A DNA stretch of 64,000 nt from an uncultured Pseudomonadota bacterium (GCA_964606885.1 CAZSHB010000003.1:8539-72538), one strand, 5' to 3'. Counted from the stretch's first letter, positions 13,948-55,980 are shown. Made by a program: numbers and translations. The notes: generated by a model from the letters alone, not told the origin.

Positions 13948-16900
13948 CTACGACTCATCGCTAAAGCCGCGTGGCGAGCCATCATCATCCTTAGAGAACT
14001 TATCTTGTAAGCGCTGTTGATCATGATTACCATGAGGTGCAGAATAGTAATGGCGTTCTTCTTGAGCCATACGCACCACACGCACGGGAAAGGCAACACT
14101 GATATCGTTAAGCTTTAAGAATTTACTAATTGCGCGGCGCACGTCACTCGCAATATCCCACTGATCAAGCGTCTTTTCTGAACTAATAAAGCCACGTACT
14201 AAAAAGACAAACCCTGAAGGCCCAAACTCTTCTAAACGAACCACAGGCGCAGGCATTTTTAACACGTTAGGCACACTATTGAGCGCTTGCTTTAGAACAT
14301 CAACCGTTTTTTCTGGGTCATCCGCATACCGAATGCCAATCATAATATCAGGGAAGGTAATGTACCCAGCAGTGTAATCCCAGTTTAAAATCGTATCACG
14401 CATAAAACGAGAGTTAGGAATAATCAAGCTGTAACTTCTTTTTCTACGGAGCACCACAGTACGCGGAGTAATTTTACGCACCACACCTTTTACTTCATCA
14501 TCAAGCATAATGTAATCGCCCACTTTTAATGGTCGGTTTACAAGCAAAATAAAGTAACCCACAAAGTCGTTAAAAATATCCCGTAATGCCCACGCAATAC
14601 CCAAAACCAACGGCGTTACGTAATAGGCAATTAAGAATCCAAATCCTTGATGCCACAGACCAAGCGTAATCACCGAGATCACTACCAAGTAATACGAAAT
14701 AGTAGAAACCGCATTGTGCACACCAGGGTCAACCAAGAGCACTGCATAAATTCTAAATAACAGATATTTATCAACCAAATACGCAATAAAGAAACTAAGT
14801 GGTATGACCGCAATAGTTGCTGCAAGATCTACCAAACTCAGCTTTTGATACTGACCATCTTTTAAACCAATAACCAAACGTTTAAGTGTAAGATAATCAT
14901 ACATGGTTGCTATATGAATCGGTCTATTCCAGAACCAGCTTATTAACCCAATTGCTAAAATCACACAGATAAACATCAAGAAGATAACTGATACACCGTA
15001 CCATGTTTTAGCTGAAGAAAAACGGGCTTGTAGTGATTCGCCATCGGAAGAGAAGAAGAACATAGCAACAAGGCGACGTGCAAAACCATAAAACATATAC
15101 AGCAAGCGAGCAACCACAATTGTACCCAGCGTGCCCCAAAGAATATAAGAAACTAAATTGTTATAGCCACCAATGTGCGAATCTGTCAGCGCCATAAGCA
15201 ACACAACAAAACTGAGTAGTGCATAATAATAGTTGTTTACTAAGTGCCATACCCAGTTACCCCATGTTGAGCGCGTAGGAATAATGCTGAGTAAATCTTC
15301 TTTTCTAATAAGTGCTAATAGCAGTACACGAATAATAATTGAGTACACGGCAAGCAAAATATTTGGCAGTTCAGACTTGGTGTATAGTCCAAGCATAAGT
15401 GCTTCGCGCAAAGACAGGAGCACAATGGTTGAGTACAAAAGCCAATTAAAGACGGTAAAAAAGCGATCTTCAAAACTCTCTGTTAACAACAAGAACTGCT
15501 CTTTTTGATTATATGTTTGCAACGCAAAGCTGAGTTTTTTTGCCATATAGAGCAAGTACGGTATGGACGCTATAAAAAAGATAATACTTGGCAAATAAAG
15601 TTCTGCCGCACTGGTTGACCCAAAATGCCAAAAGAGTACCGACCAGATAAACAGACTGAGTAAATGTTCTGATGCAAACGTACAAAGTACATACGCAATT
15701 CTACTGGTGTAAAAAGCACCCTTGTATTCTTGAGCAATACGCAACAGCACGTTAGCAAACGATGGTAAATAAGAACGTATCACAAAGTAAGCAAGAATCA
15801 CGCCTAACAGCTGTGCCAAGAGTAATGCTAATGCAAAAGGACTTGCAAAGAAGTTTGCCAATCGGTACGACAACCAACCAGAAAGGAGCGATTGAATATA
15901 AGCCTGAATGCTTGTTTTTAAATCGAGTACAAAAATCTGGATGTCCGGAATAATATTGCGAATACCTTCAAGCGAAAGCGCTCCGCCTGCACGGTGCCAC
16001 AAACTGACACGGCTCAGTTCACTTGTAATACCTTCTGACTGTTTGAGCGTTGTACTGATGGTTACCACTACCTGTGAGTAACTTTCTATCAGTTTACCTG
16101 TGATATCTGTTTGACGATTAATCATCCCTTGTGCACGTTCTAAAAACGTTATTGTTTGCATATACAACTGATCTTGGCGTGCAAAGAGGTGCGTACGCTT
16201 AGTACGTATCTGCTCAAGGCGTTCTTTAATTTGATTGAACGCTCTATTTTGCACACTGAGCCTACTGGTTGCGGCAGTACGCTTATCTTCAAACAATGTT
16301 TTTTCGCGCATCAACTCAAATGCTTGCTCTTGATATTTCTTGATCTCGCCTTGCAAGCTTTCCGTATTTTTAAACAATTGCTGCTTAAGTTTGTACCATG
16401 TTTGTACTACTGCGTAGGTCAATTCTTTTTCTTTTAATTTAAACTTAGCAACTTCAATTTGGGCTCTATACAGTTCAACTTCTCGTTCTGCTGCCGCAAT
16501 CTGTTCTGTGATAAAACCTACTTGCACAGTCAGCGCATACGCTTCTCCCGTGGTTGGTTCAATCGTCCAATCTCGAACAGCAGAAACTTCTCCCTCTTTA
16601 GTGCCACGGATAGCATCAAGAGACGCAAGTTCTTTTTTAAGATCATCCATATAAGCAGTAACAATGTCGATTTTTTGTACATACCGATCAGTTACGGCAA
16701 TAACGAGCTGCTGCTCTTTTTTAACATCTTCTTGAGCAGCCTGCACATCTTTTTTATCTACTCTAAAAGAAACACGGACAATTAAATCCCGCTCCTGAGT
16801 AAGTAATACACGCTTTTTTTCTTCTACAGAAAGACGCTCTGTCACGAGTACTAAGCGCGCTTCTTGCTCCTGAATACGCACTTGTAACAGTTGGCGTTCA

Positions 16901-17598
16901 TACTCTGCTAAGCGCACTTGGATATCTAAGAGCTCACTTTGCGTATGTACATCACCCTCAGCATGCGCGCTCACTTTACCAAAATCGGTTTGCTCTTTAA
17001 CTTTTTCTTGGTGCACTTTTTCTGCTTGTACCAGCTTTTTTTGTAAACTTGCTAAGTCCGTTTTAACTTCTGCAAGTTCCGATTTAAGTGTACGTACTTT
17101 ATCTTCTTGTATGCCCACTTTATAACTAAGCGATTGCAATTCCTGAAAATCGTACAACGCTTTTTTATCTGGCAATAAGCCTTCAAATTGCGGATCTCTG
17201 ACATATCCTTCAAGCAGAGCAACTGCTTCTTTATAAATACTTATGAGTTCTTTATGAGCTGTTTTAATAGTTGTTAGAATTTGTACTGATGCTTTAGCAA
17301 GTAATAATAATTGCGGCACCAACGAGTTAGCTTCTTGAGGAGGCAACTGCTCATACGTCATCACTTGTTGTTTTGCTTTATCAAAACGCATTTGCATGTC
17401 TTGCATAAACGCGTCTTCATTTTTTTGTAAATCAAGTAATTTTGCTTTAAGACTGGCTAACTCTTCTTCTTTCTTATCGCCTACCCTGATGCGTAGTTCG
17501 CCTTGGTTTTTATTACCTATAAACCCGTCTAAAAAGCTTGATGCGTCAAGCTGCAGTGCGCTACCAGAGAGGAGTAATAACCATACTAAATTTTTCAT
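13948..17598 (-). CDS. MscK/KefA-like mechanosensitive channel with a long N-terminal coiled-coil domain
   Basis: Signal peptide at the internal Met 'MKNLVWLLLLSGSALQ' (ATGA overlap with the upstream gene), then about 500 aa of coiled coil and multiple TMs. The C-terminal MscS core is 'LVNRPLKVGDYIMLDDEVKGVVRKITPRTVVLRRKRSYSLIIPNSRFMRDTILNW'. Confidence 0.85.
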   Translation of the reverse strand: MKNLVWLLLLSGSALQLDASSFLDGFIGNKNQGELRIRVGDKKEEELASLKAKLLDLQKNEDAFMQDMQMRFDKAKQQVMTYEQLPPQEANSLVPQLLLLAKASVQILTTIKTAHKELISIYKEAVALLEGYVRDPQFEGLLPDKKALYDFQELQSLSYKVGIQEDKVRTLKSELAEVKTDLASLQKKLVQAEKVHQEKVKEQTDFGKVSAHAEGDVHTQSELLDIQVRLAEYERQLLQVRIQEQEARLVLVTERLSVEEKKRVLLTQERDLIVRVSFRVDKKDVQAAQEDVKKEQQLVIAVTDRYVQKIDIVTAYMDDLKKELASLDAIRGTKEGEVSAVRDWTIEPTTGEAYALTVQVGFITEQIAAAEREVELYRAQIEVAKFKLKEKELTYAVVQTWYKLKQQLFKNTESLQGEIKKYQEQAFELMREKTLFEDKRTAATSRLSVQNRAFNQIKERLEQIRTKRTHLFARQDQLYMQTITFLERAQGMINRQTDITGKLIESYSQVVVTISTTLKQSEGITSELSRVSLWHRAGGALSLEGIRNIIPDIQIFVLDLKTSIQAYIQSLLSGWLSYRLANFFASPFALALLLAQLLGVILAYFVIRSYLPSFANVLLRIAQEYKGAFYTSRIAYVLCTFASEHLLSLFIWSVLFWHFGSTSAAELYLPSIIFFIASIPYLLYMAKKLSFALQTYNQKEQFLLLTESFEDRFFTVFNWLLYSTIVLLSLREALMLGLYTKSELPNILLAVYSIIIRVLLLALIRKEDLLSIIPTRSTWGNWVWHLVNNYYYALLSFVVLLMALTDSHIGGYNNLVSYILWGTLGTIVVARLLYMFYGFARRLVAMFFFSSDGESLQARFSSAKTWYGVSVIFLMFICVILAIGLISWFWNRPIHIATMYDYLTLKRLVIGLKDGQYQKLSLVDLAATIAVIPLSFFIAYLVDKYLLFRIYAVLLVDPGVHNAVSTISYYLVVISVITLGLWHQGFGFLIAYYVTPLVLGIAWALRDIFNDFVGYFILLVNRPLKVGDYIMLDDEVKGVVRKITPRTVVLRRKRSYSLIIPNSRFMRDTILNWDYTAGYITFPDIMIGIRYADDPEKTVDVLKQALNSVPNVLKMPAPVVRLEEFGPSGFVFLVRGFISSEKTLDQWDIASDVRRAISKFLKLNDISVAFPVRVVRMAQEERHYYSAPHGNHDQQRLQDKFSKDDDGSPRGFSDES

Positions 17599-18203
17599 AG
17601 ATTTGTGCTCTTTACTAACAGTGGCAATGCTTTGCACCATTTACCTTGCGGGTATGCTGTTAAGCACCACACTAACCACTTATGTACTAGTTCTTCGTTG
17701 GGTAACTCTAAGAAAAGGTCCTTTAGTTTGTCAACAGGCGCATACAGAAATGCATGGTGTTCATCATCTAAAAATTCCTTGTCTGGATACAAGCCTAGCA
17801 AGGCAAACAAAAGACACACTATTTTTTTTTGTTCTATACCCGAAGTAAATGCATTGAGATTTGCAAGAATATCAACAACATACCTGCACGCATCGCCCGC
17901 TTGTGTTCCTAGCGGAATGTAATGGTAGCACACTTCAATAAGCGCATGGAGCAGATAAATAGACTGTGCATGATACAAAGAAGGATGCCGTTCTATTTCT
18001 AATCTATCAACACGACTATAATCATACCGCGCTTCATACACATGGTACGATACTATCGATCCAACCAAACCTGTTGCATATCTTTTATGGTCATAAAACA
18101 GCTTTTCAGTTCTTCCATGACCAATACTAAGCACTGATAACAGATTAGATCGTTGGCGCAAAACAATAGCTACATCCCGTACATGATCTTTTTCATCGTG
18201 CAT
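17595..18203 (-). CDS. possible DNA repair protein RecO
   Basis: 202 aa. The N-terminal pattern 'DVAIVLRQRSNLLSVLSIGHGRTEKLF' and the central 'LYHAQSIYLLHALIEVCYHYIP' and 'LLFALLGLYP' resemble the RecO OB-fold plus helical region by eye. Weak call. Confidence 0.35.
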   Translation of the reverse strand: MHDEKDHVRDVAIVLRQRSNLLSVLSIGHGRTEKLFYDHKRYATGLVGSIVSYHVYEARYDYSRVDRLEIERHPSLYHAQSIYLLHALIEVCYHYIPLGTQAGDACRYVVDILANLNAFTSGIEQKKIVCLLFALLGLYPDKEFLDDEHHAFLYAPVDKLKDLFLELPNEELVHKWLVWCLTAYPQGKWCKALPLLVKSTNL

Positions 18204-29236: not shown

Positions 29237-29887
29237 ATGAAAAAAATAGTATTACTAAGCGGATTAATTCTTTCTCAATGGTGTTATGCAAATGATAACG
29301 AAACAATATATGCCCATAGCACACCTGTGGCTAACAAAAGTTCTTCCCCTGAAGAGCACATTCTTGAACTTAATAATAAACTTTTAAAGGCAACACGAGA
29401 TTGCGATGTAACAAATATGCTCAAGGCTCTTGCACAAGGAGCAAAAAGTAATAATGGTAAAGGCCTCCTAGAATATCTAACTGTTTTGAGTGCCGCTCAA
29501 TGTTTTGACAACCGCATCTTAGATACATTAATGCAGCACAACTTTAGCCCTTCTGCTCGTGGCATATTACCTTATGAAGAGCCAGTGATTATTACTATGG
29601 CAGATCAGGGAAATATACGGGCAGTAAAAAGATTGCTCAACGCTGGAACTGATATTGATCAAGAAGGTTGGCATGGAGATACAGCTTTACTCAATGCTGT
29701 AAAGGAATGTAACACTCATATGATAAAAGCTTTATTAGTATGGGGAGCAGATCCTTCAAAAGCCAATTTTTTTGGTGAAACACCAGAAACTGTTATCCCA
29801 GATTGTACAGGCGCATCTGCTCAAAAAGATCTGAAACAAATTGAATTCTTACTTACTCGGGCTAAAGCAAGAAAAGAAATAAAATGA
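29237..29887 (+). CDS. secreted ankyrin-repeat protein
   Basis: Signal peptide 'MKKIVLLSGLILSQWCYA'. ANK units include 'GDTALLNAVKECNTHMIKALLVWGADPSKANFFGETP' and 'DQGNIRAVKRLLNAGTDIDQ'. Confidence 0.8.
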   Translation: MKKIVLLSGLILSQWCYANDNETIYAHSTPVANKSSSPEEHILELNNKLLKATRDCDVTNMLKALAQGAKSNNGKGLLEYLTVLSAAQCFDNRILDTLMQHNFSPSARGILPYEEPVIITMADQGNIRAVKRLLNAGTDIDQEGWHGDTALLNAVKECNTHMIKALLVWGADPSKANFFGETPETVIPDCTGASAQKDLKQIEFLLTRAKARKEIK

Positions 29888-30495
29888 AAAAATATATATC
29901 TCTATGGCTAGTACTATTTTCTGGCTTATTACATGCATCTTCAAGGCAAGATGATCCCAATGGACTTCATCCAATTATTACCCCTGCTGATCCTTTAAAC
30001 AGTCAAAAGCCTGACTGGTCTTTGTATAATGCTATTGTAAGTGGCGATACAGAAACAGCCTTACTATTGATTGAAAAATTATTTGATTGTATGCCGTATC
30101 CAATGGCGAATGAAGAAAGTTATCTTCATTATGCAGTACAATATGGACGGGTAGAAATCGTAAAAGCATTGCTTTATACAGACTTATTTGATGTAGATCA
30201 AATTGATAGTGAAGGCCATACACCTTTGTATTATCTTCTCATGATGAGAACCTCCCGAGGAACAAGCCTCCGTGCTTCTTCCCAGGATTATATTGCAATA
30301 GCAGAATTATTAATTGAACATGGCGCAGATATCGAAAAAGAAGATACTGATGGGCTTACTCCTCTGTATTATGCTGGGGTTGCAGGACACGAAGATATAG
30401 CTCGATTACTTATTGATATTTCAAAAAAACGGAAACAGTCATTCGGGAAACACAATGATATTGATGCTATTGTTCTAGATGGGTTATTTAATTAA
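29884..30495 (+). CDS. secreted ankyrin-repeat protein
   Basis: Signal peptide 'MKKYISLWLVLFSGLLHA'. ANK units are 'ESYLHYAVQYGRVEIVKALL', 'EGHTPLYYLL' and 'DGLTPLYYAGVAGHEDIARLLID'. It has a 4-nt overlap with the upstream ANK gene. Confidence 0.8.
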   Translation: MKKYISLWLVLFSGLLHASSRQDDPNGLHPIITPADPLNSQKPDWSLYNAIVSGDTETALLLIEKLFDCMPYPMANEESYLHYAVQYGRVEIVKALLYTDLFDVDQIDSEGHTPLYYLLMMRTSRGTSLRASSQDYIAIAELLIEHGADIEKEDTDGLTPLYYAGVAGHEDIARLLIDISKKRKQSFGKHNDIDAIVLDGLFN

Positions 30496-30507
30496 ATAAA
30501 AACACTT

Positions 30508-30882
30508 ATGAAAACTACTTCTTTACTATGGATGCTAACAACGCTCATCAGCAGTTGTATGTATGCAGCAACTCAAGAACATGATCAAGCTATCAAAATG
30601 CCATCTCTCGATATTTTACAGGAAAGACTTACACATGCTGGCTTTGGTCACTTTGATAAACAGACTAAATTAGCTCAGCAATTAGCCAATCAAGAAAGAT
30701 TACCTTTAGGCGTCTTTTCTACAGTACAACAATGTATCCATAACTATGCTCACAGTAATCCTGAACAAGCACAAGGATATCTTAAGCATTCAGACCAACT
30801 GCTTGAGATTTTATTAAAAGATTACCCGACAATCTTATTAACATTAAAAACAAGTAAGCTTTATACACCATCAGCACAATAA
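30508..30882 (+). CDS. hypothetical small secreted protein
   Basis: Signal peptide 'MKTTSLLWMLTTLISSCMYA'. No family recognised. Confidence 0.45.
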   Translation: MKTTSLLWMLTTLISSCMYAATQEHDQAIKMPSLDILQERLTHAGFGHFDKQTKLAQQLANQERLPLGVFSTVQQCIHNYAHSNPEQAQGYLKHSDQLLEILLKDYPTILLTLKTSKLYTPSAQ

Positions 30883-30963
30883 GATGATTTCTGTATGAAA
30901 ATATTTATGAAAACCCTCTTCTCATCTGATTGTGACATTGTAGTTTAATTCATCACGCAACAA

Positions 30964-32565
30964 TTAAAATTGATATAAATACTGAACTTCAAGCGTCTTT
31001 CCATCTTCGCTTAATTGTCCACCTTTAGGAATAATAAGTTCGTGTGTTTCTGGATCAAGATAACGGTTTTGAACTGTTGCAATAATTGAATCTCCAGTTC
31101 CTCTTTGAACGACTCTAACGTAGCCTGGCAAATAAAGTACACCATATTCTATGGTACCACCTTCAGGAACAATGAATGCATCTGTTTCTGGATCTAGATA
31201 ACCATTTTCTGGGGTAGCAACAAAAGAAACATCTGCCTTTGTATCAATAACTGTTCGCGTAAAATGTGGCACAAAAAGATATCCCGCATCTTCATCAAGA
31301 TAACCACCTTTAGGAATGATCAATTGATTCATGTTAGTAGGATCAACATACCCGTTACACGTTGTAGCCATTACCGAGTCACCCGTCTCTAAACTCATAA
31401 CATAAACTTGCCAAGGGTTAAACATACCCATTCTTGTAGTTAGTCTATATTTCTTTTTAAGTTCCCTAATCTGTGGATCTTTTAAATCAAACGGCAAAAT
31501 AGTACCTACAGCATCAATTTCTTCTAGAGATGGCGTATTAACAAAGCAAGAAAGGCTCAGTGTTTTTAAATTTTGCAAACTACCGTAAGCATACTGTCCA
31601 AACTCAACGTAAGCATTAAGATTAACCTCTTTAAGGGCAGGTAAATTGTTAAAGGCACCTGCTTCTATAGAAGTTATACTATTTTCTGCAAGACTAATAT
31701 TTTTAACTGAAGGTAAGTTAACAAACGTATTTTTAATAATTGTTGCCAGATTGTTTTTATCAATATTTAAAGCAATAGCTGATTTTATATTGGGAACATT
31801 ATTAAGTCCCTTTAACGATGTTAGACCTTGATTAGATAGGTCAAGTTCAAGACGTTGCGTGCCATCATAATATTGCCTCATGGAAACTGCTGGAATTGAT
31901 TGAGTATCTATAAGATCTTGAACTGAAATAGGGAATGGCTTGAGTGTTGGTTTACCCGTTGTATAGTCTGGAACAGGAAATAGATCTTTTCCTTCAGGAT
32001 TCGACGATCCAATAAAAAGTTGAACTCGCTGAGTAAGCTTTGGATAACCCATGGCTACACGCGATTTACCTGCATATTCTTTTATTTTCTTTATAAGGAT
32101 AGCAGCATGTTTGTTAGCCATTTTACTAATTAAGGCATTTGGTTTTTTTAATGGTCGATATTCTGTAAAAAGCAACTCTGCCAATTTTTCTTGCAAAAAA
32201 TGATCTTGATCAAGCATGAAATCTGCAGCCAAAATAGCTCCAAGAAGATCATCTGTTGTACACGGTTTAAAAGTCGGATCAATAATCATGGTCATAACAG
32301 TATCAAAGTCTCTTTTAGTCAAACTAGGCGTACGAGAAAAATCGACAGTATTATCGCTTTCAAGCCCAACTTGATCCGCCGCTTGCACCACAACTAACTG
32401 CTTTGCAAATCCAGCTGGATACATGCCAGTGCGACCGTCTGCAAAAATAATCGTATATTCTGGTTCTTGTGCATCATAAAAAACATCGCCGTCTACATCC
32501 GCTGCCGCCTGAACGCTACCACTTAAACCTACTAGTACGATTAACCAACCTAAAAATCTTTTCAT
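30964..32565 (-). CDS. secreted protein: Skp1/BTB-POZ-like N-terminal module + leucine-rich repeats + C-terminal tandem repeats
   Basis: Signal peptide 'MKRFLGWLIVLVGLSGSVQA'. N-terminal 'YTIIFADGRTGMYPAGFAKQLVVVQ...LLGAILAADFMLDQ'. LRRs include 'LDLSNQGLTSLKGLNNVPNIKSAIALNIDKNNLATIIKNTFVNLPSVKNISLAENSITSIEAGAFNNLPALKEVNL'. C-terminal repeats follow the pattern 'NGYLDPET..(F/L)I(V/I)P(E/K)GG'. Confidence 0.7.
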   Translation of the reverse strand: MKRFLGWLIVLVGLSGSVQAAADVDGDVFYDAQEPEYTIIFADGRTGMYPAGFAKQLVVVQAADQVGLESDNTVDFSRTPSLTKRDFDTVMTMIIDPTFKPCTTDDLLGAILAADFMLDQDHFLQEKLAELLFTEYRPLKKPNALISKMANKHAAILIKKIKEYAGKSRVAMGYPKLTQRVQLFIGSSNPEGKDLFPVPDYTTGKPTLKPFPISVQDLIDTQSIPAVSMRQYYDGTQRLELDLSNQGLTSLKGLNNVPNIKSAIALNIDKNNLATIIKNTFVNLPSVKNISLAENSITSIEAGAFNNLPALKEVNLNAYVEFGQYAYGSLQNLKTLSLSCFVNTPSLEEIDAVGTILPFDLKDPQIRELKKKYRLTTRMGMFNPWQVYVMSLETGDSVMATTCNGYVDPTNMNQLIIPKGGYLDEDAGYLFVPHFTRTVIDTKADVSFVATPENGYLDPETDAFIVPEGGTIEYGVLYLPGYVRVVQRGTGDSIIATVQNRYLDPETHELIIPKGGQLSEDGKTLEVQYLYQF

Positions 32566-32682
32566 CCTAACCCTCTCTATTATATATTCTATTTGAAATA
32601 ATATCAGTAGTTATATAAAGAAATAAAGAGAAAGATAAAAAGACCCTTATATGAGCTTAAAAGCTTGTCTCCAGCAACCCGC

Positions 32683-33573
32683 TTAGTCTTTATGGTTTCT
32701 TCTTGTAATATGCCAAGGTAATGGATTAAAAGGGCTTTTTTCTGGCTTATATAAAAGGCAAAATTCTTGAGGAGTCATGCGTGTATCTTCTTTTGGATTA
32801 TAATTACCAGGCACGCGGGGTAAACGCTCACCTTCCCAAGAATCCAACAAAATACCCGCTACTGTAAGTTTAGGTAGCCTGTCTGCTAAACATCCCAACT
32901 TTATTTTACCAAGAGGGTTATTTCTAAGATCTAATTGCTTCAATTCTGGTAAACCAACCCACTGCCCTTCTTCAAGAACAGTAATGTTATTATCAGATAG
33001 ATCTACCGTTTTAAGAGCTGATAACGAACGGCCAGGTCGTAACCTTTGGTCCCGTTCATAATCGAATTCATACACAGGAAGCTTCACCTCATGGTCTTTG
33101 AAAGTACCTGGCTGTACTGCAAAAATTGCATTATGACTACAATCAAGAAGCCGTAAATATGCTAACGTTGCAAAAAGAGCTGGATATAACTCTTGTTTAA
33201 TTCCACAATTACTCATGTGCAGTTCTTGCAGATTAACCATACTATGCAACGCTTTTTCTGGGATAGCACCAATCTGGCACCCAGACAGATTTAGCACTAA
33301 AAGATTTGTAAACCCTTTTAAAACATTAGGCTGCAATTTAAGTATACGTGGTGCCTGATTATGTTGCTGCAACCGTAATAGCGCAATTTTTTGCCGTTCT
33401 TTTTGTGAAGGTAATTGATCTTCTTTTAATGGATACTCTAAGCACAGCTCTTTACCACCCTCACGATCTTTACTGTGCAAAAAAGCCCCACTAGGCAAAA
33501 ATACACCCTCTGCTGCATCTATAACATGAGGGCTTAAAAGTAGTCCAACCAATAACCCATACCTTAATTTCAT
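32683..33573 (-). CDS. secreted leucine-rich-repeat protein
   Basis: The start is set at the Met preceded by 'aaggagagg', giving the signal peptide 'MKLRYGLLVGLLLSPHVIDA'. LRRs include 'LLVLNLSGCQIGAIPEKALHSMVNLQELHMSNCGI', 'LDCSHNAIFAVQPGTF' and 'VDLSDNNITVLEEGQWVGLPELKQLDLRNNPL'. Confidence 0.8.
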   Translation of the reverse strand: MKLRYGLLVGLLLSPHVIDAAEGVFLPSGAFLHSKDREGGKELCLEYPLKEDQLPSQKERQKIALLRLQQHNQAPRILKLQPNVLKGFTNLLVLNLSGCQIGAIPEKALHSMVNLQELHMSNCGIKQELYPALFATLAYLRLLDCSHNAIFAVQPGTFKDHEVKLPVYEFDYERDQRLRPGRSLSALKTVDLSDNNITVLEEGQWVGLPELKQLDLRNNPLGKIKLGCLADRLPKLTVAGILLDSWEGERLPRVPGNYNPKEDTRMTPQEFCLLYKPEKSPFNPLPWHITRRNHKD

Positions 33574-33581
33574 ACCTCTCC

Positions 33582-35138
33582 TTACAATATCGAACACCAA
33601 GTATTTTTTTTAATTGGCTGACAAACCGCTACAAACTCGCTTTTACGAGCATCTTCACCCGCTTGCAATAAATCTACAATAGCATCATGTTCTTCCATAC
33701 GTGCATGATCAATTGCCTTTCTTTTAAGATTATCTGCAAGATCTTTACGCGCTCCTGCAGCAAGTAACGCTACAACTACTGCAGCATGGCCTTGACTCGA
33801 TGCTGCTATAAGTGGAGTAGACCCATACATATTACAGGAATCTAACTCAGCACCTGCTACAATAAGCGCTTGTACTACGTTTACATACCCAAAATAACTG
33901 GCTCGTGATAATACCGTATCTTGAACACTATTTTTTAAGTTTGGATTTGCTTGAGCAGCAAGAAGTAACTGCACAATTTTTTCACGATTTTCAAGTTTAT
34001 AGTGTGAATCAACTGCCATCATAAGCGGTGTATTATGTGCATTATCTACAAGATTTACCTGTGCTTTTGCTTTCAATAATAGATCTACCATCTCTAGGTC
34101 CCCATTATAGGCAGCAGATAATAACCCTCTAAATCCATAACCACATGCAAGCTGCTGATCTACATCAACCCCTGCTGCAATAAGTACTGCTACAAGCCGG
34201 CTATTGCGACTCTCGACAGCTTGTGCAAAAACATTATCCAGACAGCCTTCTTGTTGTTTAACCATATCAGCACCATACACCGTTGCAATCCAACGCAACA
34301 AAGTAGATATAGTTTTACGGCTAGTAATATACCCACTCAATTCTTTAAAATCTTGAGTTTGATACACAGGCGCACCAGTACGCATTCTTATCTTTGCTGC
34401 CGTTTCATTTGAATGTAAAAACCTTTGTACATACCGAATATAAGGATATATAAATTTTTGCGACAAATCCGGTATAGGCTCTTCTATAACCGTGTTATCT
34501 GTAGTAAGAGCAAATATTTTCTCACTTTTAAAATACCCAACCCCCAAACCGTCTACCCATATTTTATTCATTTCATCAAATTGCTCTCGCGTCATTAATG
34601 CAAACGTCTTTTGCGGGTTTTTTGCAAAAATCTCGCGATACAAATAGCTTCCAATTCTACACGTTATCTCATCAGTCTCACTAAACTCCCCTTTTGCTGG
34701 ATCACTATAAACAGGTTTACTATTTTCAAGAAGTATTCGTGCTGTCTCAAAAAGAGATATAAAGCTAACATCAGAATAGGTATAAAAATCTTTTATTTTT
34801 ATTTGTTCGCTACTAGTATCATGCTGACCATAGAGATCAAAATACTCCCTTAAAAATTTATACCACACTATCTGCTTAAAATGTTCCTGTGTTATAGAGG
34901 TAGCTTCTAACGAAAACGTACTGGGCCCTTTACCTAAATCTTCTGCAAGTTGCTGATACAAAAGCAATTGCTCAATAACAGCTTTTGGATAATAACCTTG
35001 GTCATCTTTAAACATTACTAAAATAGTATCTTTTTTTGGTTCACTGTTTACTGGTGCATGTCCTGATGCACTTTCTGCTGCTTGCACCGTTGTCCCTACT
35101 AAACACAACACCAACAACTTACTCCATACCTGCTTCAT
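33582..35138 (-). CDS. secreted protein: Skp1/BTB-POZ-like N-terminal module + ankyrin repeats
   Basis: Signal peptide 'MKQVWSKLLVLCLVGTTVQA'. N-terminal 'TILVMFKDDQGYYPKAVIEQLLLYQQLAEDLG...LFETARILLEN...ITCRIGSYLYREIFAKNPQKTFALMTREQFDEMNKIW'. C-terminal ANK units include 'HNTPLMMAV', 'YGSTPLIAASSQGHAAVVVALLAAGARKD'. Confidence 0.75.
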   Translation of the reverse strand: MKQVWSKLLVLCLVGTTVQAAESASGHAPVNSEPKKDTILVMFKDDQGYYPKAVIEQLLLYQQLAEDLGKGPSTFSLEATSITQEHFKQIVWYKFLREYFDLYGQHDTSSEQIKIKDFYTYSDVSFISLFETARILLENSKPVYSDPAKGEFSETDEITCRIGSYLYREIFAKNPQKTFALMTREQFDEMNKIWVDGLGVGYFKSEKIFALTTDNTVIEEPIPDLSQKFIYPYIRYVQRFLHSNETAAKIRMRTGAPVYQTQDFKELSGYITSRKTISTLLRWIATVYGADMVKQQEGCLDNVFAQAVESRNSRLVAVLIAAGVDVDQQLACGYGFRGLLSAAYNGDLEMVDLLLKAKAQVNLVDNAHNTPLMMAVDSHYKLENREKIVQLLLAAQANPNLKNSVQDTVLSRASYFGYVNVVQALIVAGAELDSCNMYGSTPLIAASSQGHAAVVVALLAAGARKDLADNLKRKAIDHARMEEHDAIVDLLQAGEDARKSEFVAVCQPIKKNTWCSIL

Positions 35139-35148
35139 CCATTCCCCT

Positions 35149-36726
35149 TTACATCACTGCACATTGCATACATTTTTTATTCTTTTTACCGGCTTCTAAA
35201 AGAGCTAATACCTCTTTATGGTTGTTTTTTCTTGCATGATCAGCTGCCGTCATAAACTGATTGTCATACAAATGCTTATCTGCTCCGGCAGCAAGTAATG
35301 CTGCTACAACAGGAACATGCCCTTCTTCAGCTGCCGCCATAAGAGGAGTACCCCAAGAATCCCACCTATGAAGGCTTTTATAGTGAACATTCAGTTGGGC
35401 ACCGGCATCAATCAGTAATTGTACAATATCTGCATACCCAAAACGACTTGCTTTTACTAAAGCTGTTTCTCCCCATTCAGGTTGTTGCATATTCGGATTA
35501 GCCCCTGAAGCAAGAAGCAACTGTACAATTCGCTTGCGACGATCAATTGTAACGCCATCGTCATCCCCACTCCCTAATGCCTTTATAAGGGCTGAAGTAT
35601 GAGCCTCTGTAAAAATATTAACTTTTGCTTTTGCACGTAAAAGAGTCTCAACCATCTCTTGGTTACAAGTATCAGCGGCATGCATTAATGCTGTAAATCC
35701 ATACCCTACACCCGCTGATAGCTGTCGATCAACATCTACGCCTGCTTTCAGTAGTAACTCCACAAGGCCACTATCGCCTGTTAGTACTACCCTATCAAAC
35801 AAATTATCAAAAACGATTGCCTTTTCTGCCTTTAATTCTTTGCCATACATAGTAATAACCCATTTTAAGCTCGCTACAGACGCATTTTTGTTACATAGCA
35901 AACTGTTATACAAAGTATAATAATAATTAGAATGATAAGGCGGTAAACTGATACGAGATTTAATAGCGTCTAAAGATGCTTGTGAATGTAAAAATCGCTG
36001 TACATACCGAATATAAGGAGCCTGTAAATGTAAGGGCAAAAATGGCAACGATTCTTGCACTAAAGTACGTTTTTTGTTCTGTTTATCTTTAGACACAAGA
36101 GCAAATATGTTTTTTAATCTATGTAAAAAAAAACTTTTATCTTGAAGTCTAATATGACTTATTGCTTGCACCCAAGCCTCGTTCATTTCTTCAAACTGCT
36201 CGTCTGTCATTAATCCAAGAGTTCCATCCGGATTCTCACAAAATCTTTTATATAAGACATATCCAATTGTACATGTTGCTATATCTAAACAAGCAAGTTC
36301 ACCTGTAGCTGCATCGCTATACACAGGTTTTTGATTCTCTAATAGTATCCGTACTGTTTCAAACAGATCTATTACATCTTGTATTGAACCATCTTGACGA
36401 ATAAAAGCATTATAAGCTATACCTGGCACATCAAACTTATCAAGATCATCTTTGAGATATACAACAAATGCAAAATTTTTCTGTGTAATACCAGTAGCTT
36501 CTAACAAAAAAGTTGCAGCCTGGTCCTGACCAAGATCTTCTACAAATTGCTTATACAGTGGCAGTTTATCAATAAGAGCTTTTGGATAATAACCTTGACC
36601 ATCTATAAACGTTACCAAAACAGTCTCTTCTGTTGGCGTAGATACTCTTGACGATGCTCTTGATGCATTTTCTGCTGCTTGCACCGTTGTCCCTACCATG
36701 CATAATATATAGAACAACTTATTCAC
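35149..36726 (-). CDS. secreted protein: Skp1/BTB-POZ-like N-terminal module + ankyrin repeats (paralog of 33582..35138)
   Basis: Signal peptide 'MNKLFYILCMVGTTVQA'. N-terminal 'VLVTFIDGQGYYPKALIDKLPLYKQFVEDLG...LFETVRILLEN...ATCTIGYVLYKRFCENPDGTLGLMTDEQFEEMNEAW'. ANK units include 'GFTALMHAADTCNQEMVETLLRAKAKVN' and 'WGTPLMAAAEEGHVPVVAALLAAGADK'. Confidence 0.75.
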   Translation of the reverse strand: MNKLFYILCMVGTTVQAAENASRASSRVSTPTEETVLVTFIDGQGYYPKALIDKLPLYKQFVEDLGQDQAATFLLEATGITQKNFAFVVYLKDDLDKFDVPGIAYNAFIRQDGSIQDVIDLFETVRILLENQKPVYSDAATGELACLDIATCTIGYVLYKRFCENPDGTLGLMTDEQFEEMNEAWVQAISHIRLQDKSFFLHRLKNIFALVSKDKQNKKRTLVQESLPFLPLHLQAPYIRYVQRFLHSQASLDAIKSRISLPPYHSNYYYTLYNSLLCNKNASVASLKWVITMYGKELKAEKAIVFDNLFDRVVLTGDSGLVELLLKAGVDVDRQLSAGVGYGFTALMHAADTCNQEMVETLLRAKAKVNIFTEAHTSALIKALGSGDDDGVTIDRRKRIVQLLLASGANPNMQQPEWGETALVKASRFGYADIVQLLIDAGAQLNVHYKSLHRWDSWGTPLMAAAEEGHVPVVAALLAAGADKHLYDNQFMTAADHARKNNHKEVLALLEAGKKNKKCMQCAVM

Positions 36727-36774
36727 ACGTAACCCTTTTTCATTGTAAAAACCTCACATAACAAAGGGCATTAT

Positions 36775-37284
36775 ATGCTAAATAACAAAGCGCACTCAAT
36801 CTTTCTTGAACTACAAAAACTCATCTACCAACCCTGTGGTTTACCCGTAACAAACTATAAACAAGAAACAGAAAACAAAGAGTACGGCGCCTGTTCATTT
36901 GATCTTAATCAGCATGCCATACAGTTTCGTGTAGCAAAAATAACCCCTACCAAAAATGGTCAGTTTGTTGCCTTTTATACACGTACTAGGTTGGGCACAA
37001 CAATCCCTTACGATAGTACAGATACGTTTGATTTTATTATTATCGCCTGCCAGCAAGAAGAACATCTGGGGCAATTTATATTTCCCAAAGCAGTTTTAGT
37101 ACAACACGGTTATGTATCTGTTAACGGTATTGGTGGTAAACGGGCCATGCGTATCTACCCGCCATGGGATGTACCAGAAAGCGCTCAAGCAGCAAAAACA
37201 CAGGCTTGGCAGCTACCCTATTTTACTACCATCAAACCACATTGTGATAATACTGCAATTTGTGCCCTTCTTGTTCATCGATAG
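36775..37284 (+). CDS. MepB-family protein
   Basis: 'NKEYGACSF...RVAKITPTKNGQFVAFY...GQFIFPKAVLVQHG...GGKRAMRIYPPWD...AAKTQAWQLPYF' matches my recollection of the MepB (PF08877) pattern. Function unknown. Confidence 0.55.
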   Translation: MLNNKAHSIFLELQKLIYQPCGLPVTNYKQETENKEYGACSFDLNQHAIQFRVAKITPTKNGQFVAFYTRTRLGTTIPYDSTDTFDFIIIACQQEEHLGQFIFPKAVLVQHGYVSVNGIGGKRAMRIYPPWDVPESAQAAKTQAWQLPYFTTIKPHCDNTAICALLVHR

Positions 37285-38353
37285 GGATAGGTTGTGTAGC
37301 GATGTTTTCCCGCAAGGATGGACATACATCTCCTACAATATTCCCTTTTGAGTTAATAGGTAATCGAGAAACTTCAAACGCCGTTTTGCCCTCTTTATTT
37401 TTTAATCTTCTGTTTGCTCCGTAACTTAAAAGCAGAAATATTTTCTGGTATCCCGATGCCGCTTCTTGTGTATCTGCAAGTGCATAGTGTAACAGCGTGT
37501 TACCATCTTCATCTTGTACGTTAGGGTCTAGTATACGGTCTGCAAGCAAAGACTTTATTTCTGCTGGTGCACAAGATTGCAACCATATACTTTGAGGATT
37601 ATCGCGAAGATCTTTTCTTTTTGGCCACTCAAAACACTCACCTGGCAAAGGCTTTTCTGGCTCTTGATACACTACTTTATGGCGCTTTGCCCATACATTA
37701 GAAGACATAACAGGTTTAAGAGTTGGTTTGATAGCACGAGCTTTACTACGGAGACTAAGATTTGCTTCTGTTTTTGCAAGCAATGCAACCATAACACGAT
37801 TATGACATCTAAAAGATTCATACATAGGTTGAACGTTATAATCATCTTCTACAGTTACGCCTTTAGCCACAAACATGTAATATATTTTTTTAATTTTTCG
37901 AACTTTTTCAGCATCTTTTTTATCGCAACACGGAACCCTTGCTAATACACACATTGCACAGTTTGTAGGTTTTACTCCGTTATCAAGCAACCACTTAACA
38001 GACACGTCTTGTAATGTTTCAACTGCCATAAGAATAGGATAAACATAATCGGTGCTACCTGTTTGGCGATAGCAAAAATTATGCTGTATTCCAGGATGTT
38101 GTACTAACATTGCATCAAGCACGGAGGTATTACCATCGCACAATGCTTCCTTAAAGGACTCTGCTGCTCTTTCAGGTATCTGTAATATTGAAGGATAAGA
38201 GCGGGCATTACCAGATTCCTGTTCCCGACTTGCCCGATCGCGCATAAATGCTTCTATGTCACCATGAATCAATGTGTGCAAAAAAGATTCTGATGCCTGC
38301 ACCATACTGCTGCAGCCGGTTATTGCCAGTATCGTACCTAATAGTTTTTTCAT
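37232..38353 (-). CDS. secreted ankyrin-repeat protein
   Basis: Signal peptide 'MKKLLGTILAITGCSSMVQA'. The C-terminal ANK unit is 'DEDGNTLLHYALAD...IFLLLSYGANRRLKNKEGKTAFEV' and a central weaker repeat is 'YPILMAVETLQDVSVKWLLDNGVKP'. Confidence 0.7.
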   Translation of the reverse strand: MKKLLGTILAITGCSSMVQASESFLHTLIHGDIEAFMRDRASREQESGNARSYPSILQIPERAAESFKEALCDGNTSVLDAMLVQHPGIQHNFCYRQTGSTDYVYPILMAVETLQDVSVKWLLDNGVKPTNCAMCVLARVPCCDKKDAEKVRKIKKIYYMFVAKGVTVEDDYNVQPMYESFRCHNRVMVALLAKTEANLSLRSKARAIKPTLKPVMSSNVWAKRHKVVYQEPEKPLPGECFEWPKRKDLRDNPQSIWLQSCAPAEIKSLLADRILDPNVQDEDGNTLLHYALADTQEAASGYQKIFLLLSYGANRRLKNKEGKTAFEVSRLPINSKGNIVGDVCPSLRENIATQPIPIDEQEGHKLQYYHNVV

Positions 38354-38417
38354 AATAAGTCTTTCTGTTTACCGCACAGAATACAGGTATCATGAAATTT
38401 CGGATATAATAAGCAAT

Positions 38418-38441
38418 AAAAAAGGGAGGCATGCGCCTCCC
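38418..38441 (-). terminator. rho-independent terminator
   Basis: Perfect 7-bp GC-rich stem gggaggc-atgc-gcctccc. On the minus strand it is followed by TTTTTT, just downstream of ORF 38479..38838. Confidence 0.55.
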
Positions 38442-38478
38442 TAAAGTTTTGAACTAACTTTTTTAAATTTATCTATAT

Positions 38479-38838
38479 CTACCTTCCTTCTTCTAAGAAA
38501 GCTCTTATATCCACTTTATAGCCATCTATGTAGCAAACATTGAAGCAATCTTCTCTCCGAATAAGAATTTTCATTCCGTTGGGTAAAGTATCTTCCAAAG
38601 ATTCAAAGCCTGTTGATGTAACCAGTGATTCTATTTCTGCAATTCTTTTTTTTGTACGTGATGTAATAAAAACCTCATAAAGCCTTGGGATTATTACACA
38701 AATAACAACATTAACAGCAACCCAACCAGTAATAACAGCGCAAGGCGAATATACTGTAGTTGATGGAGTAGGTTGCACAGCAGAAACATCTGACATACAA
38801 ATCAATAAACTAACTACTAACAATATTGATTTTTTCAT
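38479..38838 (-). CDS. hypothetical small membrane protein
   Basis: The start is set at the internal Met giving 'MKKSILLVVSLLICMSDVSA'. A second TM is 'AVITGWVAVNVVICVIIP'. The ORF is open to 38868. Confidence 0.45.
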   Translation of the reverse strand: MKKSILLVVSLLICMSDVSAVQPTPSTTVYSPCAVITGWVAVNVVICVIIPRLYEVFITSRTKKRIAEIESLVTSTGFESLEDTLPNGMKILIRREDCFNVCYIDGYKVDIRAFLEEGR

Positions 38839-38973
38839 ATAAAGAACCCCTAAAAATAAACCATGCATTATAAACCTATAGTAACATCTAAAAGATTATC
38901 CACAAAAGCCCACCAATACCGTACACTCAAGGGCTAATTACTATCTACTCTCTTTTTTAAAACAGGCTAACTC

Positions 38974-39549
38974 ATGAAAAATAAAATTCTTATATATTGC
39001 TTATTACTCATAAGTGGACGCGTATATACGGCTGAAAATAGATCTGCCGGTATAAATACCATTGGCGCAGTAGTTGGCACAGGCGAACTTTTCCAGGCTA
39101 TTACGGATCATGATCATACAAAAGTGGTTGCAGAATTTACTGCTGGTGCATCTGCAAATGCGGTAGTTGGGATTGGATTTACAAGAACCATGCTGGGCGT
39201 TGCACTAGATGCTTATAAACCCGAAATACCCAGCTCAAAAGAAATTATCAGGACATTATTAGAACATGGAGCTCAGGCCGATGGGCGCACCCCGAGCCAA
39301 GAATTCCCTTTGTATACAGCGGTAAAAAAAGATTTGCATGAAGTTGTCGAGCTGTTGCTACAAGCCGGTGCACGAGAATTCTATATTCCCTCTTTAAAAT
39401 GGGCGCTCTATCCCGAAAATAAAGCGATGCTTACAATTTTGTTAGATAAAACTCATCTAAAAACACGCATAGGTATCTTAAAGGCTTCGTCCCAACAAGA
39501 ACTCTTAAACCAACTAACCAAGCTTAATTATACTATTTCAGTAGACTAA
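38974..39549 (+). CDS. secreted ankyrin-like repeat protein
   Basis: Signal peptide 'MKNKILIYCLLLISGRVYTA'. ANK-like units are 'EIIRTLLEHGAQADGR' and 'FPLYTAVKKDLHEVVELLLQAGA'. Confidence 0.6.
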   Translation: MKNKILIYCLLLISGRVYTAENRSAGINTIGAVVGTGELFQAITDHDHTKVVAEFTAGASANAVVGIGFTRTMLGVALDAYKPEIPSSKEIIRTLLEHGAQADGRTPSQEFPLYTAVKKDLHEVVELLLQAGAREFYIPSLKWALYPENKAMLTILLDKTHLKTRIGILKASSQQELLNQLTKLNYTISVD

Positions 39550-39699
39550 TACTCAAGTCTCTAAGCTCATATAAGCTCAACCCTTAAGATTCAAATACTG
39601 TCTATGTTCTGGGCCAGGACAGGCTGTTGAAAATAGCTCCTAAAGCTGTACTATGGAAGTATATGGGTTTATTATTCTGTTCTCTATGGGGGGGTATCT

Positions 39700-40410
39700 G
39701 TGCCTTTAAAAAAATCTTTCTTTTTAGCTATTTTAGGTCTATATAGCGTGTTTAATACCACTGCTAAAATCTTACCTGGCAGCGACACTCAAATCATGAT
39801 GCGCTTTCTAGATTATATGGTATCAAAAACACCTTCAGAGCTCATTAACAATACGTGTTTAGATAGTATCAAACTATATGCTCATACATTACCAACATCA
39901 GAACTTGATCTTTTAGATACAACAATTGAGCAATTTGTTAACATCCATAGCGCAACCTTTATAGACATAGCTCAAGAAACTCTCAACAAATTCCCTGCCG
40001 ATGAAAAAATAGCCGCTGAAGAATTATTAACACTGTTAAAAAAAGATTTAGAATTTCAAAAAGATAGCGCTGTACGTCAAGTAAGTGCACCATTTAATCA
40101 GGAATTCTTTAATAAAGTGATAACAGCATTTGCTTGTTATCAAAACTGCATACCACTACAAACACCATCTGTTGCGCAAGATTATTTTTTAACAAATATC
40201 AGCAAAAAAATTACTGATATGAGTATTGTGTGTAAAAACAGCAAAGACGCAACTCAGCAAAAAGCACTCTGTTGCATGTATTTGTATATTTTTATTCATA
40301 TGAGCTATTACACAGTACAACGCGCTCTTATCAAAAAAAACAGACTGCATAATCGAGTACTATCAGCATTCATAGGGGGATTGCACACATGCAAAAAATT
40401 ACTTTTTTAA
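39700..40410 (+). CDS. hypothetical secreted protein (GTG start)
   Basis: N-terminal 'PLKKSFFLAILGLYSVFNTTA' is signal-like. No family recognised. It overlaps the next ANK gene by 22 nt. Confidence 0.4.
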   Translation: MPLKKSFFLAILGLYSVFNTTAKILPGSDTQIMMRFLDYMVSKTPSELINNTCLDSIKLYAHTLPTSELDLLDTTIEQFVNIHSATFIDIAQETLNKFPADEKIAAEELLTLLKKDLEFQKDSAVRQVSAPFNQEFFNKVITAFACYQNCIPLQTPSVAQDYFLTNISKKITDMSIVCKNSKDATQQKALCCMYLYIFIHMSYYTVQRALIKKNRLHNRVLSAFIGGLHTCKKLLF

Positions 40411-41540
40411 TAACATCTTTTTTACTTTTCTCTACACAGACAACATTAGGGCAAACAGCTTCATATCTCTATTTTCCACATTATGTTGAAAATTATGCAA
40501 TCAAAAATATCTACGAAGCTCTGCAATGGAGACACCCAAAAGAAGATCTTGCTATCATCAAGCATTTTTTAGACAATGGCACCGATGTTAATCTTGTGGT
40601 GTACAACACTCAATTTGACACTAACCGTGGCCTTTCAATACTACATCATGCTTTTCAAGCTTGTTTACCCGAAGTGATAGAACTTCTTATCCAGTATGGA
40701 GTGGATGTTAATAAACCTCTTGAAAAAACTAAAACTGTAGCATTACATCTAGATCCTTATGGACAACCTGAAAATTATTATCGCTGTGTAGAATTACTCA
40801 TTAATGCAGGAGCTGACGTTAATAAAGCTGATGATTATGGTTTTGTGCCTTTACATAAAATGATGCGCTCTCCACGCCTTGTACAACTACTCATTGCATC
40901 TGGCGCACATGTTAATGCATGCCACCAAAGAGGTCGTTCTCCATTGCATGAATTGCTCTACAATTATTCTAGGTGGGATAAAGAGTCTATCCAACTTCTT
41001 ATTAACGCAGGATCAAAATTAGATACTCTTGATGCCCATGGTTTTGCACCGTTGCATTATGCAGCATTTCATAGTGCAGAAGAGGTTATTCCATTACTCA
41101 TACAAGCAGGAGCGGATGTTAATCAAAAATCAAACGCAAATTATAATTATAGAGAAGCATATTCTTTTTTAAATTATCAAACATCAGAAACAAAAACTCG
41201 TAATAAAAAGTCTTCTTCTGTAGGTCTGACCCCCATAGACTGTGCAGCAATTAATTGGTGGCGCCTGTACTCCTTTATGTTCAAAGCACCTTTTCCTATA
41301 AATTTTATTGACGTGACACGTTTCTTCCCTCCAGAGGGCATGGTTTATGTGACTTTTTTTGGTCCTAGAGACCATAGAAATACCATGGAAATACTTTTGA
41401 ATGCAGGAGCTACTGCTGACAACGTCAATATCCAAGCACTTACAGAAGCTGTAAAACAGGGATCATTAAAACAGGTAATCCATGAACTTCCTGCAACACA
41501 TGCTTTTATCAAAGATGCTACAAAAGATTGTTTACGATAA
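40389..41540 (+). CDS. secreted ankyrin-repeat protein
   Basis: Signal-like 'MQKITFLITSFLLFSTQTTLG'. ANK units are 'GLSILHHAFQACLPEVIELLIQYGVDVNKP', 'YGFVPLHKMMRSPRLVQLLIASGAHVN', 'RGRSPLHELL' and 'HGFAPLHYAAFHSAEEVIPLLIQAGADVNQK'. Confidence 0.8.
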   Translation: MQKITFLITSFLLFSTQTTLGQTASYLYFPHYVENYAIKNIYEALQWRHPKEDLAIIKHFLDNGTDVNLVVYNTQFDTNRGLSILHHAFQACLPEVIELLIQYGVDVNKPLEKTKTVALHLDPYGQPENYYRCVELLINAGADVNKADDYGFVPLHKMMRSPRLVQLLIASGAHVNACHQRGRSPLHELLYNYSRWDKESIQLLINAGSKLDTLDAHGFAPLHYAAFHSAEEVIPLLIQAGADVNQKSNANYNYREAYSFLNYQTSETKTRNKKSSSVGLTPIDCAAINWWRLYSFMFKAPFPINFIDVTRFFPPEGMVYVTFFGPRDHRNTMEILLNAGATADNVNIQALTEAVKQGSLKQVIHELPATHAFIKDATKDCLR

Positions 41541-54612: not shown

Positions 54613-54628
54613 AAAACACCAAACTTTC

Positions 54629-55966: not shown

Positions 55967-55980
55967 ATTCTATAACACTT

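Follow-up and report, generated by a model that had tools for sequence, protein, structure and literature searches.

A candidate POZ/Skp1-like module joined to ankyrin repeats in secreted-type proteins of an uncultured Dependentiae bacterium

Here we analyse a 64,000-nucleotide stretch of DNA recorded as coming from an uncultured Pseudomonadota bacterium (GCA_964606885.1, CAZSHB010000003.1:8539-72538), referred to below as the window, with a focus on two adjacent minus-strand genes for ankyrin (ANK) repeat proteins, ANK1 (33582..35138, 518 amino acids) and ANK2 (35149..36726, 525 amino acids, GTG start). By prediction, both products consist of a signal peptide, a domain of ~165 residues (hereafter the module), a helical linker of ~100 residues and five to six ankyrin repeats. 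The explanation that we prefer, and to which we give an even chance as a whole, is that they are secreted-type ANK proteins of Candidatus Dependentiae carrying a species-specific POZ/Skp1-like module, by which ubiquitination in the host would be redirected or blocked. An earlier, sequence-only reading of this DNA had placed a block of about 150 residues, likened by eye to eukaryotic Skp1, behind the signal peptides of three proteins: ANK1, ANK2 and the leucine-rich repeat (LRR) protein LRR-A (30964..32565, 533 amino acids). The three open reading frames (ORFs) do lie where it put them, on the minus strand; the peptide strings that it quoted are all present in them, and the human Skp1 strings used in the comparison are 100% identical to annotated SKP1. 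A second strain is represented by a syntenic locus, L001, in the Logan assembly of run SRR27639470 (window 30964-35138 corresponds to L001 960-5194), which contains the ANK1 ortholog P0002.

The likeliest fold of the module, which on the structure model we rate somewhat better than even, would be a POZ fold followed by additional helices at the C-terminal end, as in Skp1. The best of five AlphaFold2 models of ANK1 residues 23-308 has a mean predicted local distance difference test score (pLDDT) of 57.9 and a predicted TM-score (pTM) of 0.54. Its elements, in construct numbering (where residue 177 is ANK1 residue 199), are the strands (E) and helices (H) E16-20, E25-29, H30-33, H37-45, E52-54, H62-80, a loop, H104-116, H132-149, H153-157 and H162-177. 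In this low-confidence model, their order is that of Skp1, b1, b2, H1, H2, b3, H3, a variable loop, H5, H6, H7 and H8, as assigned in published structures. The motifs that had served as anchors fall at the end of H2 (EDLG), in H5 (LFE..ILLE), in H6 ((I/V)TC), in H7 (KTF) and in H8 (a terminal W). A Foldseek search of the PDB with the ANK1 model returns SKP1 chains in all of the top 10 places (E 0.055-0.38, ~160 aligned columns), led by 6wnx_H (E 0.055, probability 0.96, 162 aligned columns, target-normalised TM-score 0.43); for the ANK1 model only, these are followed by the BTB domains of BCL6, SPOP and KBTBD2 (E 0.6-1.6). Skp1, giant-virus homologs included, is the top match in the BFVD library as well, where the leading matches include SKP1 proteins of Solumvirus and Pandoravirus and many BTB proteins of giant viruses and poxviruses (E 0.07-0.4). 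The Skp1/BTB-POZ fold proposed from sequence thus survives for the two ANK proteins, with support that is weak but coherent, and no different fold emerged. For LRR-A it is unsupported: its N-terminus is modelled at pLDDT 34, and its Foldseek matches are scattered (probability <=0.11).

ANK1 and ANK2, a pair of tandem paralogs, share 46% identity over their full length, 44% over the ~290 residues ahead of the repeats and 51% over the modules alone, and N-terminal identities among ANK1, ANK2 and P0002 range from 44 to 62%. The shared block is therefore genuine in the two ANK proteins, and longer than had been proposed; its extension to LRR-A did not hold up. BLASTP aligns LRR-A to ANK1 only over residues 1-62, signal peptide included (E=2e-4), and finds no significant similarity between LRR-A and ANK2. 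We attribute the ANK1 match to the signal peptide, since the mature sequences give a best E of 1.3-3.9 between LRR-A and the ANK proteins. Scored with hidden Markov models (HMMs) built from the ANK module, LRR-A reaches 1.6-2.3 bits (E about 40-54 in a set of 3461 ORFs), and hhalign gives LRR-A against the module a probability of 0.7%.

One could nonetheless imagine that all three proteins, LRR-A too, bear a common, extremely diverged POZ-like module. The alignments of LRR-A and of its L001 counterpart to the module, both weak, fall on the same ~30 residues (YP...EDLG; hhalign P=0.076 and 0.012), the two proteins rank 5th and 6th of 433 ORFs by module HMM, and LRR-A differs between strains at more than one synonymous substitution per site, so that loss of signal is plausible; moreover, BTB-LRR is a known bacterial architecture, that of Protochlamydia PEX1 (PMC4209131). 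The motif in question, of the form YP...(E/D)(D/Q)(L/V)G, is not above chance, and these scores are noise against the 3461-ORF null; the mature-protein BLAST result, the absence of a Pfam BTB or Skp1 match in LRR-A, its pLDDT and its random fold search all speak against a common module, which we regard as quite unlikely. LRR-A was accordingly rejected as a third carrier, its match being due to the signal peptide. We treat it as a secreted LRR protein in its own right, one that evolves faster still and has an N-terminal region not assignable to the ANK module.

Beyond these two genes, the module was found only in this species. Nothing related to the ANK or LRR-A N-termini came up in a word index of 5.8 billion proteins, scans of JGI metagenomes were likewise empty for both, and no relatives of the module were found in genome-representative contigs. 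Scanned exhaustively with HMMER, a set of 1.84 billion representatives gave two matches, the ANK2 of the window and P0002.

This narrow distribution is one of the observations that favour a different explanation, in which the proteins begin with an orphan domain peculiar to the species and not related in fold to Skp1 or BTB, the motif matches arise by chance, the Skp1-like model is a low-confidence artefact, and the proteins remain secreted ANK adaptors with no link to cullin-RING ligases. Because no homolog was found outside the species, there is no evolutionary bridge to eukaryotic Skp1. A number of further points weigh against a Skp1-like module, beginning with the sequence statistics, every one of which is at chance level. 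Pfam detects no Skp1_POZ, Skp1 or BTB domain (E<=1 for full proteins, E<=10 for isolated modules), and BLASTP of each protein against SKP1, as a single comparison, gives E 0.47-4.4. An hhalign comparison of the three-sequence module with a 14-sequence Skp1 alignment yields a probability of 0.6%; LRR-A also reaches 0.6% and its L001 counterpart 1.6%, within an overall range of 0.2-1.6%. With all filters off (--max), a Skp1 HMM leaves the proteins unranked among 433 ORFs. Local and semi-global BLOSUM62 scores against Skp1 of human, Dictyostelium and Arabidopsis and against Elongin C equal those of shuffled sequences (z -1.4 to 2.4). Sequence searches of the PDB, with a single sequence or the three-sequence profile, return no Skp1 and only spurious matches to lactate oxidase and glycoprotein N.

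The model itself adds to this side. It was built from a two-sequence alignment; its pLDDT does not reach 50 in most of the POZ core (construct residues 35-133), is 63-85 from residue 140 onward, and the remaining four models are poorer (pLDDT 40-49). No Foldseek match reaches E<=0.001, and target-normalised TM-scores stay at or below 0.48. The ten SKP1 chains effectively amount to one observation, and AlphaFold and the sequence-only reading may both have reacted to the same few short motifs.

A failed model, however, should scatter, as that of LRR-A did, yet SKP1 and then BTB proteins head two independent libraries, albeit at E-values of 0.05-0.4 only. The ~160 aligned columns span all of Skp1, and the anchor motifs, chosen before any model existed, land in the same helices. 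We therefore consider an orphan fold a serious contender, with somewhat less than an even chance, and continue to favour a POZ/Skp1-like module, the sole structural hypothesis to emerge, as suggested by one low-confidence model. By profile criteria, ANK1 and ANK2 belong to neither the Skp1 nor the BTB (PF00651) family, because the profile tests gave no match, including searches for BTB, BTB_2 and other POZ-clan domains in the three proteins and their L001 orthologs. The profile match that had been expected thus failed to appear, and the by-eye alignment to Skp1 is, as sequence evidence, without statistical weight. The two proteins may nevertheless work like Skp1 or BTB proteins, and the fold evidence leans in that direction.

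Whatever its fold, the module is a real, selected and independently recombining unit, as the comparison with the L001 strain shows in terms of synonymous (dS) and nonsynonymous (dN) substitution rates. Leucyl-tRNA synthetase (LeuRS) is 99.4% identical between the strains (dS 0.084, dN/dS 0.03) and a neighbouring protein of 205 residues 99.5% identical (dS 0.008, dN/dS 0.27). Modest divergence is also seen in LRR-B, the LRR protein encoded between ANK1 and LRR-A (94% identity, dS 0.095, dN/dS 0.27), and in the C-terminal part of ANK2 (93%, dS 0.137, dN/dS 0.28). ANK1 is 79% identical overall and divides into two parts. Residues 23-200, which contain the module, are 44-73% identical by segment (dS 0.60, dN/dS 0.44), with the minimum of 44% over residues 93-140, and residues 201-518 are 89% identical (dS 0.03-0.07, dN/dS 0.8-1.5). 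Along the gene, dS drops from 0.6-1.0 over residues 1-200 to 0.03-0.07 over residues 201-518, against a housekeeping background of 0.008-0.084.

ANK1 is thus a mosaic: the allele to which its signal peptide and module belong is deeply diverged and under purifying selection. The sharp fall of dS at the domain boundary points to a recombination breakpoint near residue 200, where the Skp1-like part of the model stops (residue 199), and a mosaic of this kind shows the module to be a functional domain that can be exchanged on its own. The hypervariable residues 93-140 would match the long H3-H5 loop of the model; the H3-H5 loop of Skp1 is likewise variable and disordered. LRR-A has diverged further still: over the whole gene it shares 36% identity with the L001 protein encoded at the matching position (559 residues; dS >1, dN/dS 0.4-0.8), which points to wholesale replacement between strains, of allele or paralog.

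How such a module might act can be set out as a sequence of steps. ANK1 and ANK2 would be exported from the bacterium and capture a host protein through their ankyrin repeats. The POZ/Skp1-like module would then either bring this complex to a cullin-RING ligase or an F-box partner of the host, or simply self-associate, with host ubiquitination redirected or blocked as the outcome. A Sec signal peptide brings a protein only to the periplasm, and delivery to the host cytosol is an assumption. In the proposed register, the Skp1 segment AANY corresponds to ILLE in the module; N108 and Y109 of Skp1 contact Cul1, and with this replacement the Cul1 contact would not be conserved. Overall, engagement of a host cullin or F-box protein seems doubtful to us. 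A stricter version, in which ANK1 and ANK2 are single-chain Skp1 mimics that combine a complete Skp1 fold, POZ core and F-box-binding helices alike, with an ANK scaffold for substrate binding, are exported by a bacterium equipped with Sec and a type II secretion system only, exchange the fold as a strain-swapped cassette in an arms race with the host and dock directly onto host Cul1 or capture host F-box proteins, is a little less likely still.

Alternatively, a POZ-like module might merely self-associate, as many BTB domains do, forming dimers or oligomers that cluster ANK scaffolds and engage no cullin or F-box protein. Oligomerisation is the most general function of BTB domains; dimeric BTB domains of the BCL6 type are among the Foldseek matches, and the missing AANY segment fits this possibility too. 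The best matches, on the other hand, are to Skp1 including H6-H8, over ~160 columns as against 109 for dimeric BTB, and we hold pure self-association to be as doubtful as cullin or F-box engagement.

The preferred reading of ANK1 and ANK2 as Dependentiae proteins follows from their genomic setting. The best relatives of the window's LeuRS among 185,579 species representatives, at 55-75% identity, are nearly all metagenome-assembled genomes titled Babeliales, Dependentiae or TM6, and on this basis the sequence assigns the window to an unrepresented species of Candidatus Dependentiae (Babeliales). The known members of this phylum live as obligate parasites inside the cells of amoebae and other protists, and ANK proteins with signal peptides are its hallmark class of putative effectors. 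Of the 126 ANK proteins of Babela, 79 carry a signal peptide, and a type II secretion system is the only secretion system detected there (PMC4378268); in Chromulinavorax, signal peptides are present in 78% of 98 ANK proteins (PMC6561590).

The four-gene cluster of ANK2, ANK1, LRR-B and LRR-A belongs to an island adjoining leuS (29237-41540, or 29.2-41.5 kb) with at least 12 genes for small ANK, LRR or orphan proteins. Signal-peptide-like N-termini, in which a K/R-rich n-region and a hydrophobic core go together with a small-x-small site, occur in 12 of the 13 island ORFs checked (29237 to 41540), as judged by a heuristic based on hydrophobicity and an AXA site, not by SignalP. The exception is a MepB-like gene (36775-37284, plus strand, Pfam E=6.9e-47), which has ANK2 on one side and the next ANK gene on the other and shares 53 nucleotides with the convergent ORF 37232-38353 at the 3' end of the latter. 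At the position matching the island, the L001 strain has other ANK genes (L001 5334-6391). Also adjoining leuS, a plus-strand ORF of 242 residues without a Pfam match (24585-25313) shows a dN/dS of 1.64 against L001 10099-10827, from small counts (dN 0.021, dS 0.013).

Within the cluster all genes are on the same strand: ANK2 and ANK1 are separated by 10 nucleotides, ANK1 and LRR-B overlap, and LRR-B and LRR-A are 117 nucleotides apart. Because of this tight spacing and overlap, the four look like one transcription unit. At E<=1, Pfam finds nothing but ankyrin repeats in ANK1 and ANK2 and nothing but LRRs in LRR-A and LRR-B, so that the repeat scaffolds named by the sequence-only reading, ANK in two proteins and LRR in one, are confirmed; the heuristic likewise supports the Sec-signal-like N-termini that it saw on the three, which have in common a hydrophobic core (maximum KD10 2.1-2.6) and a cleavage-like site with VQA before and A after the cut.

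In ANK2, the predicted Sec signal peptide (36676..36726, residues 1-17, MNKLFYILCMVGTTVQA with AE after the cut, by hydrophobicity and the AXA heuristic) aligns with that of ANK1, and we favour the upstream GTG start at 36726 because of this alignment. The public ANK2 copy P0001, of NCBI origin, has its start placed at an internal Met (MVGTT...) and hence is without a signal peptide. The N-terminal module of ANK2, the paralog of the ANK1 module and likewise a candidate POZ/Skp1-like domain, covers residues 32-191 (36154..36633). Its ankyrin repeats extend over approximately residues 311-505 (35212..35796), with Pfam Ank, Ank_2, Ank_3, Ank_4 and Ank_5 matches between residues 347 and 498 (Ank_2, E=2.9e-27).

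The corresponding parts of ANK1 are a predicted Sec signal peptide by the same heuristic (35079..35138, residues 1-20, ending in GTTVQA with AE after the cut), the module, at once the candidate POZ/Skp1-like domain of the AlphaFold2 and Foldseek analyses and the cassette that recombines by strain dS (34542..35036, residues 35-199), the linker (34239..34541, residues 200-300) and the ankyrin repeats (33669..34238, approximately residues 301-490, with Pfam stretches between residues 306 and 466; Ank_2, E=2e-22). The linker is modelled as a beta-hairpin and helices, contains the invariant PYIRYVQRFLHS and, at pLDDT 70-85, is the best-predicted part of the AlphaFold2 model. As a separate candidate, linker residues ~200-300 were considered as a degenerate F-box, which would have made a fused Skp1-F-box-ANK protein. 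This was rejected on sequence grounds, with no Pfam match and an hhalign probability of 0.1% against a 6-sequence F-box profile whose positive control reached 98.6%; neither Pfam nor hhalign finds an F-box (PF00646/PF12937) adjoining the repeats.

LRR-B (32683..33600, minus strand, 305 amino acids) consists of a signal peptide and LRRs (Pfam LRR_8, E=5.8e-22) without an N-terminal module, and its true start is likely the internal Met of MKLRYG... LRR-A comprises a heuristically predicted signal peptide (32506-32565), the orphan N-terminal region (31861-32505, residues 21-235), Pfam LRRs (31531-31860, residues ~236-345; LRR_8, E=3.3e-11) and three C-terminal repeats of ~45 residues (30967-31413, residues ~385-533), all on the minus strand. 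The C-terminal repeats follow the pattern ..GDS(V/I)(M/I)AT..N(G/R)Y(V/L)DP.T...(I/L)I(I/V)P(K/E)GG.. and have no Pfam match; the L001 counterpart retains them only partly.

Elsewhere in the window, 53233-61031 on the minus strand holds a tandem array of five paralogs of ~450 residues, 46-57% identical, with hydrophobic N-termini (FIDRWY...YLNWHA); the three paralogs that were scanned have no Pfam match at E<=1. A glycosyltransferase-like ORF (57354-58127) breaks the array and a methyltransferase (62320-63096) follows it, and the whole may be a surface-polysaccharide locus. A minus-strand gene at 13948-17640 encodes a protein of 1230 residues with MscS channel domains in the last ~200 residues only, the N-terminal part of ~1000 residues being without assignment.

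Set beside known systems, ANK1 and ANK2 resemble the ANK proteins of Babela massiliensis and Chromulinavorax destructans in phylum, in the combination of Sec signal peptide and ANK repeats and in their clustering in genomic islands; they differ in the ~165-residue module and ~100-residue linker, which have no relatives beyond this species. To eukaryotic Skp1 (PF03931 and PF01466, giant-virus homologs included) the likeness lies in the predicted order of elements and the size of ~165 residues. Unlike Skp1, however, the module shows no detectable sequence homology to that family, is bacterial, sits behind a signal peptide and is covalently fused to ankyrin repeats, and the ANK1 model has ~15 extra residues inserted between H5 and H6, lacks H4 and does not conserve AANY.

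The closest architectural precedent is the PEX1 family of Protochlamydia, effectors with an N-terminal BTB domain and C-terminal LRRs (Domman et al. 2014, PMC4209131). Both groups come from amoeba-associated intracellular bacteria, combine an N-terminal POZ-type domain (here a candidate) with a C-terminal repeat scaffold, show tandem duplication and fast evolution, and have a proposed role in hijacking host ubiquitination. The BTB domain of PEX1 is recognised by Pfam, whereas the module of ANK1 and ANK2 is not; PEX1 has 73 members that behave as type III secretion substrates, compared with two paralogs with Sec signal peptides in another phylum here; and the repeats here are ANK in place of LRR and the resemblance is to Skp1 in place of plain BTB. 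A further comparison is with effectors that combine an F-box with ANK repeats, such as Legionella AnkB (PDB 5k35) and the poxvirus ANK/PRANC proteins, which share the ANK scaffold and an element of the Skp1-cullin-F-box (SCF) interface (again a candidate here). The Skp1 chain of the AnkB complex (5k35) is the second-ranked Foldseek match in the PDB. In AnkB-type proteins the F-box recruits host Skp1, whereas here no F-box is detected and the protein would imitate Skp1 itself. ANK1 and ANK2 are best seen as a possible new variant of bacterial effectors that join a POZ fold to a repeat scaffold, from a new phylum and Skp1-like in place of BTB-like.

Intracellular bacteria hijack host SCF and Cul3 ligases through F-box, U-box and BTB effectors, the last of which are, to our knowledge, known in Chlamydiae only. 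Our literature search found no paper connecting Dependentiae with Skp1 and no bacterial effector with a Skp1 fold of its own; the literature that joins 'Skp1-like' with 'bacterial effector' deals mostly with effectors of plant pathogens (the GALA F-box proteins of Ralstonia) and with Skp1-like host proteins of plants. If the stricter, single-chain version is true, bacteria would have their first Skp1-type adaptor, and a POZ-fold effector would for the first time be known from outside Chlamydiae. The Skp1-ANK fusion would represent a different entry into cullin-RING ligases, one that needs no F-box, in the poorly understood Dependentiae with their hundreds of secreted ANK proteins. Even without a likeness to Skp1, the strain-level swap of the N-terminal cassette of ANK1 and of the whole of LRR-A for deeply diverged alleles marks these domains as rapidly changing and probably host-facing, and it defines a target of ~165 residues for structural and interaction work.

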